From the NCBI GenBank assembly GCA_037443265.1, contig JBBIOR010000003.1, positions 1 through 64,000 of the forward strand: 64,000 nucleotides of DNA, read 5' to 3'. Shown here in pieces: positions 12,001 through 15,000 of this stretch; the first letter of the stretch is position 1; each line of letters opens with the position of its first letter. Position numbers: made by a program. This DNA is from Candidatus Fraserbacteria bacterium. Lineage in GTDB: Bacteria; Bipolaricaulota; Bipolaricaulia; RBG-16-55-9.

Positions 12001-15000
12001 GTGGAGCTCTATGAGGAACTCACGCAGGGCTATCGCGTCAATTTGCAAGAGATTGTGGGAGATGCGATCTTCACGGTCGATTATGACTCGATGGTCGTCC
12101 TTAAGGACATTGAGTTCTACAGCTTGTGCGAGCACCACCTCGTCCCGTTCTTCGGCCATGTGCATGTGGGCTACATCCCCAAGGGTCGAGTGATGGGGGC
12201 GAGCAAGATCCCGCGTGTGGTGGACGCATTCGCCAAGAGATTGCAGCTCCAGGAGCGCATGACGGAGGAGATCGCCCGCTTCTTGGAAGGGGCGATCCAG
12301 CCCCTGGGTCTAGGCGTGGTCGTCGAGGGGATGCATCTTTGCCTGGCCATGCGCGGGGTGGAGAAGCGGGAGGCATGGATGGTCACCAGCGCCATGAAGG
12401 GATCGTTCCGGAAAGACGCCAAGACGCGGTCAGAATTTTTGCAGTTCATCGCTCCGCGCTTGGAGCGATGACCTGCTCGGCCCGTTCCGTGGGCGAGGGC
12501 TAGCGACTCGTCCACGAGCAGGGGGAGGGAAACCAACGGCGTTGGTCATCCGGACCCGAAGGAGGCAGACGCAAAGCCATTGGAGGGCTGCCGCTTGGGC
12601 CGAGCAGGTCATCTATGACGTCTTCCATTTTTATAATCGCGCAATGATTATATCATAGGATATTCTGTCTTGTCAAGGGGTGGAGTCAGTGTTCATATCC
12701 GCGATCTTCCAGCTTGCAAACTCTTCCGTTCTCTTCGATCCAGACGCCCTTTGGAACGACCTCCCCAATGATCGTGAACCGAGTGGCCCTCGTGGCCTCT
12801 TTGAGGCGTGGCGGCGGGATCGTGAAGAGTAGCTCGAAGTCCTCGCCGGTGTAGAGCGCTATCTCCCGGAGTTCTTGCGGGCTTTGGGCGAGTTCATTCG
12901 CTTCAGGGCGAAGGGGTAGATCGCGATAGCGTACGCGAAAGCCCACATGGCTCGCCTCAGCCAGCTGATACAATGAGCGCGCCAGCCCATCGCTGATGTC
13001 CATCATGCTCGTGGCATAGGGAGCCAAGGCGAACCCTTCCGCCACCCGGGGGACGAACTCAAATAGCTCGTTGGCTCGCTTAAGCTCTCCCCGCTCGAAG
13101 AGCTTCAAGGCCACGGCTGTTGCTCCCAGTCCTCCGGTGATACCCACGAGATCTCCGGGCCGAGCGCCACTACGCCTGACGGGCCGGCGCGCCTCTCCCA
13201 GAGCGGAACTCACGAGCGTCAGCTCCGCATGGCGCGAGAGATCCCCGCCCACATAGGGGGCCTGCACACTCTGGCAGCAGTCGAGCGCACCTTGCAACAA
13301 TCCCTCCAGAAAACGGCGCTCAAACTCTGGAGCCCCCAAGGCCAAGACGACGCCCAGGGGCTTGGCCCCCATCGCGGCGATGTCGCTGAGCGTCACAGCC
13401 ACAGCCCGCCACCCGATCGCATGAGCGGTAGCGCCCTCGGGCAGATCCGCTCCTCTCCAGAGCATGTCCGTGGTCAGTACCAGCTGAGTCTTCCCTAAAG
13501 GGATGACAGCGCCATCATCCCCCACAGTGGGGAGTTTTTTGGCTAAAAATCTCAGAACTTGACGCTCTTTCATCGCCACTATCCTAGCAGACTCCCCTCC
13601 CTTAGGGAAAGACTAGAGGACCCGGGGGGACTTGACAGGGCCCTATAGCGTGTGCTAACATTACGCCCGTATCCGAACCCGATAAAGGCAAACCCAGCGA
13701 AAGCTGGGAGCGCAAAGCCACAGGCCTAAAGGAAGGTTCCTATGGCAGCTGGGCTGCCGAAGGTGAGGGGCATTGTACATCGTCTGTAGATGGGCTAGGG
13801 TGTGTTATCCACGACGCACGGGCAGGGTCTTCTTCTCCCAACCTCCTTGCAGGCAGGAAACGCTTGGCCAGCTTGGGCGCTCTTTGGGTCTTCGGTCCTC
13901 CGAGCTCCCAGAGTTTTTCCCACGGGCCCACCTCCTTACATTCTCCGTGGGTTTTTTGCTCAGGAGTCGGGGGGCTGCCCACTGGTCAAGCGCTCTTTCC
14001 TGCTTAAGGGGAGAGGGGAAAAGAGTGGAGGGACAAGCCGCAGGCCATGCTTGGGGTCTTATAAGATGCCTCTCGGAGGGCGCTCTTAGTGTGGCCTGCG
14101 GTCCTCTCTCTTAGCCTGCGCGCGCCAGCAGGGCCCGGCTGAGAGACGAACGGGACGGAGCGGAGGTGACGAGGCGAGGTCTAAAAAGGGGGCTGGGTAT
14201 GCCTGAAGGAGGTTGGCCATGGCTAGGTGGCTAGTGGGATCGTCTGCGTGGTTCATCTTTCTGTCTATGCTGGCCTCAATCGGACCCTGGGCTTTGGTTT
14301 CCGGCCAAGTCCCATCCACAATCCCAAGCGTTGTGGTGCGCCAAAACGGTCTCTCTTGGGAGGTCCGTCCCCTGGTGGGAAAAGAGTCTCCTTGGAATTT
14401 CTATGCCTACAGAGAATTTCGCAGCCACAACCCTCTCGTTCAAACCAATGGGAGCTTGATCTTTCTCTACTACTATGAAGCAGATCCAGCGGCCGGAGGG
14501 GGACTCTATCTCGTCNNNNNNNNNNNNNNNNNNNNNNNNNNNNNNNNNNNNNNNNNNNNNNNNNNNNNNNNNNNNNNNNNNNNNNNNNNNNNNNNNNNNN
14601 NNNNNNNNNNNNNNNCCCTGCCGTAGAGCAGTGCGCTACTTGCGCTCGGCGCACGTGAGCGTAGAGATAGTGACGACTGGATCTAGACCCTTTGTGCTGA
14701 CTTCTCCCACAATCGTGTAGGGCATGGGCTTCGGGCAGCGAACGCGATAGCTGAAGGTCTTAGTGGTGCCGGCGGAGGGCTCGAGGATCACGCCCTTGAG
14801 GGTATCCTCTTGAGCGATCGTGAAGCCTGACCCGGCGTCTACTAGAGTGAGGCCGGGGAAGAGTTCTTTCACCAAGACGGCCGGCAAGGTCCGCTCGACC
14901 CGGATGGTAAGCCGCACGGTGAACGTCTCGCCTACGAAGACCTGGGCGGGCACCTCGCGCCAGACCTGGAGCACGGCCTTCCCCGGCAGAGGGGGTGGGA

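Follow-up and report, generated by a model that had tools for sequence, protein, structure and literature searches.

A family of structured RNAs with C-rich, anti-Shine-Dalgarno-like loops in one Bipolaricaulota order, with a member downstream of a c-di-GMP-I-GGC aptamer

The window analysed here is the whole 64,000-nt stretch G000:C3:1-64000, in which window coordinates are identical to contig coordinates. A promoter-like site, a c-di-GMP-I-GGC aptamer, a structured RNA element in the form of a long imperfect rod, a second long hairpin and a short ORF follow one another there on the forward strand (Table 1). The promoter-like site is the only one within 13400-14400 (shuffle mean 0.2). In the linker between aptamer and RNA (13763-13828), neither a promoter-like nor a terminator-like site was found and no expression platform was recognised; the genome-wide survey's note had likewise seen no promoter-like site, and no ORF, between the two. 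The interval given in that note, 13853-13996, does fold stably (-68.5 kcal/mol, z -4.3, equalled by 0 of 200 shuffles; opposite strand -57.1, z -2.45), but it is only the inner part of a rod that extends over about 13829-14025. In the MFE structure of 13763-14161 the outer helix is longer, with GCAGGAAA (13853-13860) paired with UUUCCUGC (13996-14003) and the C-rich 5′ flank of the element paired with AAGGGGAGAGGGG, and the CGCUUGGCC/GGCCAAGCG helix is retained by RNAalifold across four genomes of family f1. The second hairpin (14027-14109) probably closes the transcription unit; the sequence behind it is UUUUU, UUUUU or UCUUUUC in three relatives and UCCUCUCUCUUAG, with no clean U run, in G000. 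Transcription of the RNA unit may continue into the ORF, whose only similarity is to the N-terminal ~100 aa of PKD-domain proteins of ~500 aa; in G103 and G010 these proteins are encoded directly 3′ of their own c-di-GMP-I-GGC aptamers.

Table 1. Features of the aptamer-linked RNA locus in window coordinates
Feature	Position	Strand	Basis or remark
Promoter-like site TTGACA-N18-TAACAT	13632..13661	+	TG before second hexamer; ~17 nt 5′ of aptamer
c-di-GMP-I-GGC aptamer RF03167	13678..13762	+	Rfam, 76.4 bits (gathering score 59), E 2.4e-16, full model 1-80
Linker, aptamer to element	13763..13828	+	consensus site scans
Whole element, long imperfect rod	13829..14025 (about)	+	MFE of 13763-14161
5′ motif CCCAACCUCCUU, second anti-SD-like site just 5′ of outer helix	13837..13848	+	sequence
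Outer helix P1, 5′ strand CGCUUGGCCAG	13861..13871	+	pairs with 13982-13992
Conserved core: P2, U-rich internal loop and P3	13900..13971	+	model R1, 63.7 bits
U-rich internal loop, 5′ half	13914..13918	+	U5 in the window; UUUUG in most copies
Apical hairpin P3	13919..13951	+	8 pairs, 13919-13926/13944-13951; 17-nt loop 13927-13943
U-rich internal loop, 3′ half	13952..13957	+	U6 in the window
Outer helix P1, 3′ strand CUGGUCAAGCG	13982..13992	+	fold of window copy; RNAalifold
Second long hairpin (GCCGCAGGCCAUGC...GUGUGGCCUGCGG)	14027..14109	+	MFE; kept in four f1 genomes, one compensatory pair
Downstream ORF, 135 aa, start region GAAGGAGGUUGGCC-AUG	14219..14626	+	outside the RNA family

The element is one of nine in G000, at C3:13853-13996(+), C6:42279-42409(-), C16:17762-17896(-), C29:3944-4068(-), C1:38655-38747(+), C1:107717-107858(-), C9:8326-8460(-), C10:47969-48097(-) and C8:7486-7573(-). 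Our own model R1 (66 positions, trained on these nine copies) recovered precisely the same set in G000 at E<=1. All of them share one core, composed of a CCAGRG/CYCAG helix, a U-rich internal loop (UUUUG opposite AUUUUU) and a GC-rich hairpin. The nine are strongly diverged, with a mean column identity of 47%, and P1 takes the form GCUUGG...CCAAGC in six of the nine and different complementary sequences in the rest. Two copies that had been called doubtful look genuine: the G010 orthologue of C8 shows compensatory changes and a TATAAT box, and C10 is a member of a subclass that has a T-arm and short C-rich loops. As had been reported, the family is absent from Rfam; no Rfam 15 family lay on the element in a gathering scan of the window, in 13400-14400 at E<=5 or on the other eight copies at E<=1, and the E-value scans returned only chance-level lncRNA or miRNA rows over the elements. 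ORFs across the element lie in different frames in different genomes, which argues that it is not coding. A literature search found no publication on the motif.

Covariation strongly distinguishes this structure from shuffled controls, with the proviso that the structure was drawn from the same sequences on which it was scored and that alignments A3 and A5 were model-fitted. Among the nine copies 91.5% of cells were paired (70.6% in shuffles) and the covariation score was 0.609 (0.218 in shuffles, none of 500 reaching it; slid controls 0.05-0.17). A larger set of 69 core matches, 67 of them distinct, gave 95.0% paired cells versus 69.9% and a score of 0.617 versus 0.174, again with 0 of 500 shuffles as high and slid controls of 0.02-0.11. 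Compensatory changes occurred in 14 of 16 pairs, and all seven modelled P3 pairs had changed on both sides. The survey's descriptive claims (a structured family new to Rfam, nine copies in G000, an anti-SD-like apical loop, restriction to one order and a copy behind the aptamer) were each reproduced with our own alignment and model. G-U/U-G cells outnumbered A-C/C-A cells by 40 to 8, an excess that identifies the annotated strand as the folding strand. Because P2 pairs span the U tract and covary, including the strands 3′ of it, the full-length RNA is under selection. On these models, each family RNA is a stable rod or cloverleaf; we infer the transcript ends, strand and abundance of the family RNAs.

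At the tip of the conserved arm a GC-rich hairpin displays the C-rich loop (G/A)CCUCC, and CCUCC recurs in both the 5′ leader and the 3′ part of the RNA. The resemblance of the apical loop to the 16S tail, noted in the survey, is borne out: the 3′ end of the G000 16S gene is GGAUCACCUCCUUUCU, the window P3 loop is CCCACCUCCUUAC, and CACCUCCUU at 13929-13937 is identical to nine bases of the tail. CCUC[CU] occurs in the P3 loop of 32 of 38 copies and is absent from six. Across the 69 copies, CCUCC exceeds GGAGG in the core (49 versus 1), in the 130 nt upstream (57 versus 20) and in the 130 nt downstream (59 versus 14), and the two are nearly equal at 300-700 nt from the core (107 versus 112). 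Over the whole RNA region this amounts to 165 versus 35, an approximately five-fold excess and about 2.4 CCUCC per RNA; 46 of the 69 copies have the upstream motif within 130 nt of the core, most often at 40-60 nt. C-rich, SD-complementary motifs occur in loops or unpaired stretches, several per RNA, as in the class of C-rich-loop anti-SD sRNAs. In several folds the 5′ CCUCC is not free but pairs with a G-rich segment on the 3′ side. The P3 loops, of 9-19 nt, are conserved and specific to their class; that of the C9 class, 17 nt long, is nearly invariant in nine genomes of five families, on a stem that covaries. A crude search for extended mRNA complements found no enrichment: exact 11-nt complements of the C9-class loop gave 11 matches outside the own locus in five genomes, against 8 for the reversed control, and AGGAGGU followed by UGG was only mildly over-represented in G000 (14/302).

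The best-conserved feature of the family is the U-rich internal loop, ahead of CCUCC. Its four 5′ columns are U in 67 of 67 distinct sequences and its five 3′ columns are U in 64-67 of 67; A92 is present in 67/67, the G-C pairs beside the loop are invariant, and the clamp of G-C, R-Y and G-C pairs is nearly so. A base-pairing model gives no account of this conservation, and most likely the loop, together with the CA/A loop, docks a protein or another RNA. P3 followed by AUUUUU, i.e. a GC-rich hairpin and a U run, is present in nearly all copies, and this combination could terminate transcription before the 3′ half of the RNA is made. P3 was not called in a consensus terminator scan of the window because its loop (17 nt here) exceeds 8 nt. 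P3 does not fit the setting expected of a plain intrinsic terminator, at the end of a transcription unit and with nothing functional paired over its U run, given the covarying P2 pairs across the U tract and the 25 of 64 copies that have no same-strand upstream gene.

Twenty of the 69 copies fold as a tRNA-like cloverleaf with a canonical T-loop, in which the core makes up the long "anticodon arm"; the other 49 are without a T-loop. In these 20 copies the T-arm, with its GGUUCGANNC loop, lies 3-10 nt past the core, beside the closing helix's 3′ strand; the motif occurs on the 5′ side in 1/69. RNAalifold on nine C9-class sequences gave an acceptor of 6-7 bp, a D hairpin, an anticodon-like stem with three pairs changed on both sides and a T stem, which together make a four-way junction. 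The closing helix is 7 bp in the C9 class only and 10-14 bp elsewhere; in the other T-arm classes it was missed by MAFFT and RNAalifold and recovered by single-sequence folds. Identity as a tRNA or tmRNA was rejected: ARAGORN called no tRNA or tmRNA gene in 12 loci with T-arm copies, and RF00005 did not match the elements at E<=1. The tRNA-like scaffold, the synteny described below and the greater conservation of the U-rich loop relative to CCUCC are all observations beyond the survey's note.

All genomes compared are metagenome bins related to each other, and the counts are therefore not independent. The core is present in 32 of 32 genomes of the order, with 2-10 RNAs per genome. Outside the order, 8 of 118 genomes elsewhere in the phylum match at E<=0.001, where the survey had counted 1 of 118. 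Four f8 matches and one f9 match are weak, and those in G142 (f11, four matches, best 2.7e-10) and G051 (f10) are better. Flanking genes are kept beside the element in other genera or families for four of the nine G000 copies, namely C1a (in G010 and G103), C29 (G046 of f4), C1b (G061) and C9 (G029 of f2, G036 and G134 of f3), and such syntenic placement across families argues that the copies are not mobile. The best explanation is an old, vertically inherited family confined to one Bipolaricaulota order. Its copies are not tied to adjacent genes, and their orientation to them is not fixed: the upstream neighbour is divergent in 25 of 64 cases and on the same strand in 39, the downstream neighbour is convergent in 38 of 66, 16 copies run opposite to both neighbours, and the functions of the neighbouring genes are heterogeneous. 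Some signs point to transcription independent of these genes. A promoter-like site lies upstream of 18/69 copies, compared with 9/69 in each of two controls. TATAAT is found 7-8 nt before the C1a copy and before its G010 and G103 orthologues, as well as before C8 and its G010 orthologue (L080), and several classes have clean terminators 3′ of the RNA.

Linkage to an aptamer, which the survey had also seen in other instances, extends to at least 10 genomes of four families: G000, G103, G149, G107 and G126 (f1), G150, G036 and G134 (f3), G055 (f5) and G046 (f4). At these loci the aptamer is on the same strand and always precedes the RNA, with 88-306 nt between the aptamer end and the core start, and in all ten UUGACA, read by eye, occurs no more than 60 nt upstream of the aptamer. 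Only G000 and G055 have a plausible same-strand gene behind the RNA. Aptamers of the c-di-GMP-I-GGC type are themselves common, occurring in 33 of 35 genomes of the order at up to 17 per genome.

We propose, with a probability of about one half, that the element is one of nine paralogous, stand-alone regulatory sRNA genes whose products pair with Shine-Dalgarno sites, and that one sibling is gated by c-di-GMP. The exposed CCUCC motifs would pair with Shine-Dalgarno/GGAGG sequences of mRNAs and thereby block or modulate translation initiation, with the class-specific bases that flank the loop motif allowing some choice of target. Its long closing helix and its tRNA-like junction, built from a T-loop and a D hairpin that contains GG, would render the RNA compact and resistant to nucleases, and tRNA-processing enzymes may trim it. 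For the window copy and its orthologues, transcription would start at a sigma-70-type promoter and proceed through the aptamer into the RNA, such that the second messenger would determine how much of this sibling is made or how it folds. A putative trans-acting anti-SD function, which the survey's note had likewise put forward as inference only, gains indirect support from the excess of CCUCC over the whole RNA and from the free orientation of the copies. Counting against the sRNA reading, a general anti-SD sequence provides little target specificity. The unenriched complements, the six P3 loops that lack CCUC[CU], the paired 5′ CCUCC of several folds, the possible termination behind P3, the constancy of the U-rich loop and the lack of a recognised expression platform weigh against it as well. 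Dependence on Hfq was rejected, as the RNA occurs in 32/32 genomes of the order and Hfq (PF17209) in 4/35, three of them above the cut-off, with 0 matches in G000 (88% complete).

The unexplained constancy of the U-rich loop is what a protein-binding scaffold or sponge would account for. Here the loop, with its G-C clamp and CA/A loop, would dock a lineage-specific protein, and the CCUCC repeats would titrate a factor that recognises the 16S tail, in the manner of CsrB/RsmZ for CsrA but C-rich, with no need for mRNA pairing. Motif repetition is a hallmark of sponge RNAs, and the number of CCUCC per RNA and of RNAs per genome suits this role, as do the lack of enrichment of extended mRNA complements and the tRNA-like elbow, a common protein or RNP handle. 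We nevertheless regard a sponge as appreciably less probable than the sRNA reading; there is no candidate protein, with neither Ro/TROVE (PF05731; control matches in Deinococcus and Bacteroides) nor Hfq found in G000 and Hfq scarce in the order, and the conserved, class-specific loop bases outside CCUCC fit base pairing better than one shared protein site. A cis-acting role appears more doubtful still. In the window, the element would belong to a riboswitch leader, ~540 nt long, of the ORF at 14219-14626, with P3 and its U tract as terminator and CCAACCUCCUU masking the ribosome-binding site; elsewhere it would serve as an elaborate terminator or 3′-UTR stabiliser. The 5′ motif CCAACCUCCUU (13838-13848) is indeed exactly complementary to AAGGAGGUUGG (14206-14216), 2 nt before the AUG at 14219; P3 is a GC-rich hairpin followed by U5-6; read-through past the hairpin at 14027-14109 is plausible because a clean U run is missing there; homologues of the ORF lie directly behind aptamers in two relatives; and the majority of upstream neighbours are on the same strand. 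This role is hard to reconcile with the covarying strands 3′ of the U tract, the scarcity of plausible same-strand genes at aptamer-linked loci, the fragmentary nature of the G000 ORF, the many copies that have no same-strand gene upstream or that face a convergent gene, and the failure of the terminator scan to call P3, and the conserved flanks, T-arms and cross-family synteny are atypical of ordinary terminators.

Two further interpretations address the shape of the core itself. ENEs, such as those of KSHV PAN and MALAT1, are hairpins interrupted by a U4-5/U5 internal loop with short G-C helices at its borders, and a bacterial triple-helix clamp of this type would use its two U tracts to grip an A-rich strand (a 3′ tail, or an A tract of another RNA), with the three G-C pairs below taking A-minor contacts, so as to stabilise or capture RNA. 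The core geometry fits that of these ENEs, both U tracts and the clamp are nearly invariant, and the presence of U on both arms of one strand excludes a DNA palindrome and is not needed by a terminator. We know of no bacterial ENE, although no search aimed at one was made, no conserved A-rich tract was noticed in the flanks of the copies read by eye, and the predicted 3′ ends are U-rich rather than A-rich; we consider such a clamp very improbable. Least probable of all is a mobile or selfish repeat of the MITE, REP or ERIC type, whose palindromic shape would reflect transposition rather than RNA function. The dispersal of several copies in each genome, the shape of the element, an imperfect inverted repeat as long as 90-200 nt, and the many copies between convergent genes would suit it, yet the copies within G000 are diverged, orthologues of four of the nine occupy syntenic loci across genera and families, and no Y1/RAYT transposase (PF01797) matched in G000, a genome 88% complete, while control matches were obtained in 6 of 14 genomes, which largely refutes a MITE/REP-type repeat. 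The G-U strand asymmetry and the U tracts on both arms misfit a DNA palindrome, and the modular inserts (T-arm and D hairpin) also speak against a mobile repeat.

A more elaborate version, which we consider about as doubtful as the cis-acting role, would combine these features: tRNA-shaped RNAs whose long "anticodon arm" carries a copy of the 16S 3′ tail and an ENE-like U-rich clamp, so that ~20 CCUCC sites per cell genome compete with the 30S subunit for Shine-Dalgarno sites, or decoy a factor that reads the 16S tail, one member being made only under c-di-GMP control. If true, this would constitute a second-messenger-gated, RNA-based throttle of translation initiation, a mechanism that to our knowledge has not been described in bacteria. 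Bipolaricaulota are uncultured, and we know of no regulatory RNAs described in them; on the preferred reading, that of stand-alone anti-SD sRNAs, the vertically inherited siblings, 2-10 in each genome, would make up the first post-transcriptional regulon to be proposed for this phylum. Conserved linkage of a c-di-GMP-type aptamer to a noncoding RNA adds to the outputs known for this second messenger, and a natural "tRNA scaffold" with a regulatory arm, like the nearly invariant U-rich internal loop, is an unusual architecture that merits structural study. The family is defined well enough, by model, covariation and 69 sequences, for Rfam submission and in vitro work.

C-rich-loop sRNAs target Shine-Dalgarno regions. 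The family shares several features with those of Gram-positive bacteria: in LhrC1-5 of Listeria, 6C of Actinobacteria, the S. aureus RNAIII hairpins and RsaE/RoxS, C-rich motifs lie in apical or terminator loops and single-stranded stretches, redundantly within each RNA; LhrC has sibling copies per genome; and 6C reportedly acts without Hfq, which was likewise not found in G000. There is no sequence or Rfam relation to these RNAs (6C, PMC6486639; RNAIII, PMC2837412; LhrC, PMC5880928), and the motif differs, being the full CCUCC(UU) of the 16S tail here and UCCC there. Unlike them, the family combines an invariant U-rich internal loop and long closing helices with, often, a tRNA-like four-way junction. 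With intrinsic terminators and Hfq-binding modules P3 shares its GC-rich stem, UUUU before it and AUUUUU after it; unlike them, it is enclosed in two further covarying helices whose 3′ strands lie past the U tract and has loops of 9-19 nt. A T-arm with GGUUCGAxUCC directly before the 3′ strand of the closing helix and a small GG-containing hairpin in the D position recall tRNA-like RNAs (the bacterial Y RNA YrlA, the tRNA-like domain of tmRNA and engineered tRNA scaffolds), and the exchange of the anticodon arm for a foreign domain is shared with the engineered scaffolds. Unlike tRNAs, the elements encode no CCA and had no match with ARAGORN or Rfam (E<=1), and unlike YrlA/Ro systems they occur in G000 with no Ro/TROVE match. 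The RNA termini are on the anticodon side in YrlA and on the acceptor side here. Among riboswitch-controlled noncoding RNAs, EutX and Rli55 are reportedly under B12 riboswitches and SreA under a SAM riboswitch, and in these, in Vc2 and in the family alike a metabolite or second-messenger aptamer is coupled to a noncoding RNA in place of a protein-coding gene. For the Vibrio cholerae Vc2 c-di-GMP riboswitch, which is linked to an sRNA (bioRxiv 10.1101/617340), the sRNA reportedly lies upstream of the aptamer, whereas here the aptamer is 5′ of the RNA. The present link differs further in that it involves the GGC variant, a predicted aptamer, and proceeds through no recognised expression platform, and it recurs across four families of one order.

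All nine copies that the genome-wide survey's note had listed in this Candidatus Fraserbacteria genome (G000) exist, and its contig coordinates are also window coordinates (G000:C3:1-64000, plus strand). They form a family without an Rfam model: as the note had held, no Rfam family lay on the elements at gathering or permissive E-value thresholds, and the family was not found in the literature on c-di-GMP-I-GGC, Bipolaricaulota and Acetothermia RNAs, subscription papers and supplements lying outside the search. From outside to inside, the core consists of a helix of 5-6 bp, a small internal loop (CA/A), three pairs (G-C, R-Y, G-C), a second internal loop with UUUUG facing AUUUUU(C), and a GC-rich hairpin (P3) of 7-10 bp with a loop of 9-19 nt. 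Because MAFFT and RNAalifold on whole elements recovered the core alone and mis-paired the closing helix of the classes that carry a T-arm, we restricted the model to the core and assessed the outer helices on folds of single sequences and on class-wise alignments. The resulting covariance model, R1, built from the alignment of the nine cores with 16 pairs written by hand, returned the nine copies and nothing else in G000 at E<=1. Among these copies 91.5% of cells are paired (70.6% in shuffles), with a covariation score of 0.609 against 0.218 (slid controls 0.05-0.17). In a larger set of 69 matches (67 distinct) from 40 genome bins, G000 among them, the values are 95.0% against 69.9% and 0.617 against 0.174 (reached by 0 of 500 shuffles; slid controls 0.02-0.11), with compensatory changes in 14 of the 16 pairs, the structure having been drawn from the same sequences, the larger alignments fitted to R1, and the genomes being related. 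G-U/U-G cells outnumber A-C/C-A cells by 40 to 8, indicating that the annotated strand is the folding strand. The unpaired U tracts are more conserved than the CCUCC motif, with U in 64-67 of the 67 distinct sequences at each position, and A92 is present in all 67.

R1 was run on 151 genomes of the phylum and matched all 32 from the window's order, with 2-10 matches per genome (families f1, 8/8; f2, 16/16; f3, 4/4; f4, 1/1; f5, 3/3). The note's statement that the RNA family occurs in all five families of the order therefore stands; outside the order the distribution is somewhat wider than the 1 of 118 genomes it gave, with matches in 8 of 118 (f6, 0/43; f7, 0/55; f8, 4/14, weak; f9, 1/4; f10, 1/1; f11, 1/1, with four matches, the best at 2.7e-10). 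A degenerate core pattern scanned over one genome for each of 185,579 species gave 104 stretches, and among the 80 listed all but seven came from bins named Bipolaricaulota, Acetothermia, Bipolaricaulia, 'Fraserbacteria', 'uncultured Thermotogae' or 'uncultured bacterium'. The seven listed outliers (KSB1, Lachnospiraceae, Panacagrimonas, Desulfovibrio, Gammaproteobacteria, Ignavibacteriaceae and 'bacterium STB_115') reach only 16.6-28.8 bits under R1, are without P3, and were taken as chance matches forced by the pattern; four listed Bipolaricaulota-type loci scored beside them reach 57-74 bits.

Features of the window and of other loci discussed in the text (positions without a contig name refer to the window; contigs without a genome name belong to G000)
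Feature	Position	Strand	Remarks
Promoter-like site	13632-13661		sole one in the region around the element
c-di-GMP-I-GGC aptamer	13678-13762	+	Rfam, 76.4 bits, gathering score 59
ORF, 42 aa	13795-13923	-	GUG start, preceded by AAGGAGGUG
Rod	13853-13996	+	predicted fold, -68.5 kcal/mol, z -4.3; opposite strand -57.1, z -2.45
Rod, longer piece folded	~13829-14025	+	
Core	13900-13971	+	
GGGGUGAGAGGGG-like segment	14007-14020		purine-rich
Second conserved hairpin	14027-14109	+	3' of rod; fold prediction and class-wise alignment
ORF, 135 aa	14219-14626	+	strong start region, signal-peptide-like start
tRNA	35438-35510	-	
RNase P RNA, class A	37049-37408	+	214.9 bits
tmRNA	37630-37967	+	131.7 bits
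PLP-enzyme sites	C1:106410-109116, C6:40720-41889, C8:6106-7473, C10:48175-49593		
ORF, 84-88 aa	C6:42007-42273	+	strong AAGGAGGUUGG start region
tRNA gene	C6:42603-42675	-	
C9-class member	C9:8246-8560		locus L053/L006
SRP RNA	C13:43740-43826		
Tandem aptamer pairs, examples	G134:C79:428-606, G036:C1:52866-53058, G036:C74:4024-4216		

The window copy does lie behind a c-di-GMP-I-GGC aptamer, as had been reported, and a gathering scan of the window together with an E-value scan around the element placed no other Rfam family near it. The element is predicted to fold as a long rod, less well on the opposite strand. The ORF that follows aligns with ~500-aa PKD-domain proteins over no more than their N-terminal ~100 residues and thus looks like a truncated remnant; in two other genomes (G103 and G010) ~500-aa PKD-domain proteins stand directly behind c-di-GMP-I-GGC aptamers of their own. 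Over 11 nt the start region of the 135-aa ORF is exactly complementary to the element's 5' motif, and the hairpin before it is without a clean U run in G000, so that read-through and cis masking are possible in the window, an arrangement specific to G000.

Such aptamers occur in 33 of 35 genomes of the order, with up to 17 in genomes of roughly 2 Mb; some are tandem pairs 10-20 nt apart. Crossing the R1 and aptamer match lists placed a same-strand aptamer 5' of the core in ten genomes, with distances from aptamer end to core start of 138 (G000), 88 (G103), 103 (G149), 306 (G107) and 105 nt (G126) in f1, 113 (G150), 122 (G036) and 128 nt (G134) in f3, 129 nt in f5 (G055) and 186 nt in f4 (G046). 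The order, aptamer before RNA, is invariable at these ten loci, and all ten have UUGACA no more than 60 nt before the aptamer. No expression platform was recognised at the linked loci, and only in G000 and G055 does a plausible same-strand gene follow the element; in G055 (L043) an aminotransferase-like ORF lies 3' of the linked copy. Most of the ten share GCCGAAG-AUGA(R) immediately behind the aptamer's 3' end, where it may form part either of the aptamer's closing helix or of an expression platform. At linked loci of f1, f3, f4 and f5, conservation extends to a purine-rich GGGGUGAGAGGGG-like segment immediately 3' of the element; its alternative predicted partners are the 5' CCUCC flank and a neighbouring C-rich stretch, and the segment with these two modelled pairings could act as an alternative-pairing switch.

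The 16S gene of G000 ends in GGAUCACCUCCUUUCU, and the loop of the window copy reads CCCACCUCCUUAC. CCUC[CU] is present in the P3 loop of 32 of 38 copies and extends beyond the loop: CCUCC exceeds GGAGG not only in the core (49 vs 1) but also in the 130 nt upstream (57 vs 20) and downstream (59 vs 14), the two being balanced 300-700 nt away (107 vs 112), and in many copies (C/A)ACCUCCUU lies 8-12 nt 5' of the closing helix. P3 loops are class-specific; the 17-nt loop of the C9 class (named after contig C9), UCCUGCCAACCUCCUUC, is nearly invariant in nine genomes from five families, on a stem that covaries. We favor, at a probability of about 0.5, candidate sibling trans-acting sRNAs that would offer CCUCC to Shine-Dalgarno sites, with one of them under c-di-GMP control. 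This reading is weakened by the targets, since extended mRNA complements are not enriched (AGGAGGTTGGC gave 11 non-self matches in five genomes vs 8 for the reversed control), and by the six of 38 loops without the motif, the pairing of the 5' CCUCC in some predicted folds, and Hfq, which was not found in G000 and turned up in just 4 of 35 genomes across the order. In G000, 11-mer complements of eight loops mostly hit generic SD sites, and GGAGGUUGG is only mildly enriched.

A protein-binding or sponge RNA would account for the invariant U loop, and we consider it a tentative alternative, rather unlikely overall; a profile search for a Ro/TROVE protein in G000 found none. An ENE-like clamp, in which the element would form a triple helix, seems to us very improbable. 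That the element acts in cis, as a leader, a terminator or a part of 3'-UTRs, is doubtful in view of its neighbours. At the 69 loci, with crude ORF calls, 39 copies have an upstream neighbour on their own strand and 25 have one on the opposite strand; for the downstream neighbour the counts are 28 and 38, and 16 copies run opposite to both. Such mixed orientation is at odds both with a terminator, which would always follow a gene, and with a leader, which would always precede one. Some features hint at independent transcription. In several classes the 3' end is a clean hairpin with a run of U7. A TATAAT box lies 7-8 nt before one copy on contig C1 (C1a) and before its G010 and G103 orthologues, and another precedes the C8 copy and its G010 orthologue L080; in a uniform scan, promoter-like sites lay within 200 nt upstream of 18 of 69 copies vs 9 of 69 in each of two controls, so the excess is modest.

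Dispersal as a mobile repeat is scarcely credible, because the nine copies have diverged to a mean column identity of 47%, a domain profile search found no Y1/RAYT transposase (Y1_Tnp) in G000, and for four of the nine the flanking proteins are retained next to the element in genomes of other genera and families: C1a in G010 and G103, the second C1 copy (C1b) in G061, the C29 copy in G046 (f4), and the C9 copy, which follows a response regulator and a histidine kinase, in G029 (f2) and in G036 and G134 (f3). Pfam names of neighbouring genes are heterogeneous. Five PLP-dependent enzymes (two class-III and two class-V aminotransferases and a beta-eliminating lyase) flank four of the nine copies, which may be chance. 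The C6 copy lies 5 nt from the end of an ORF on the opposite strand and 194 nt downstream of a tRNA gene on its own.

Coding on either strand was rejected. The minus strand at the window copy carries a short ORF (see table); at other copies no start codon follows the SD-like sequence, the frame open across the element changes from genome to genome, the C9-class alignment contains 1-nt indels, and the G-U asymmetry favors the annotated strand over the opposite one. The element is not the SRP RNA, RNase P RNA or tmRNA, all of which lie elsewhere, the latter two in the window on the same strand, 220 nt apart, with a tRNA nearby. A 6S model gave no match in G000, which carries little weight because the model detected just 5 of 14 controls.

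Of 69 copies, 20 have a canonical T-arm motif (GGUUCGANNC) 3-10 nt 3' of the core and only one has it on the 5' side, and a small GG-bearing hairpin or loop (GGUGCAUCC) is found on the 5' side of the core. The C9-class RNA is single-copy, always stands behind a response-regulator and histidine-kinase pair, and is conserved over ~290 nt in nine genomes that together represent all five of the order's families (orthologues L072, L060, L035, L062, L022, L029, L067 and L079). The conserved RNA opens with GAUGAUCGCUCA, continues into a tRNA-like cloverleaf and closes with an invariant GUGGUUGCUAACCUCAU and a hairpin resembling a terminator. RNAalifold on the nine genomes gives this cloverleaf an acceptor-like helix, a D-position hairpin, an anticodon-position stem and a T stem; the anticodon-position stem has three compensatory pairs, and within it lie a side hairpin and the core arm. 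The 3' acceptor strand has two competing 5' partners, both conserved, and automatic calling of the acceptor boundaries is inconsistent for this class. Other copies, the window copy included, are plain rods that have lost the T-arm. ARAGORN called no tRNA or tmRNA on 12 T-arm loci.
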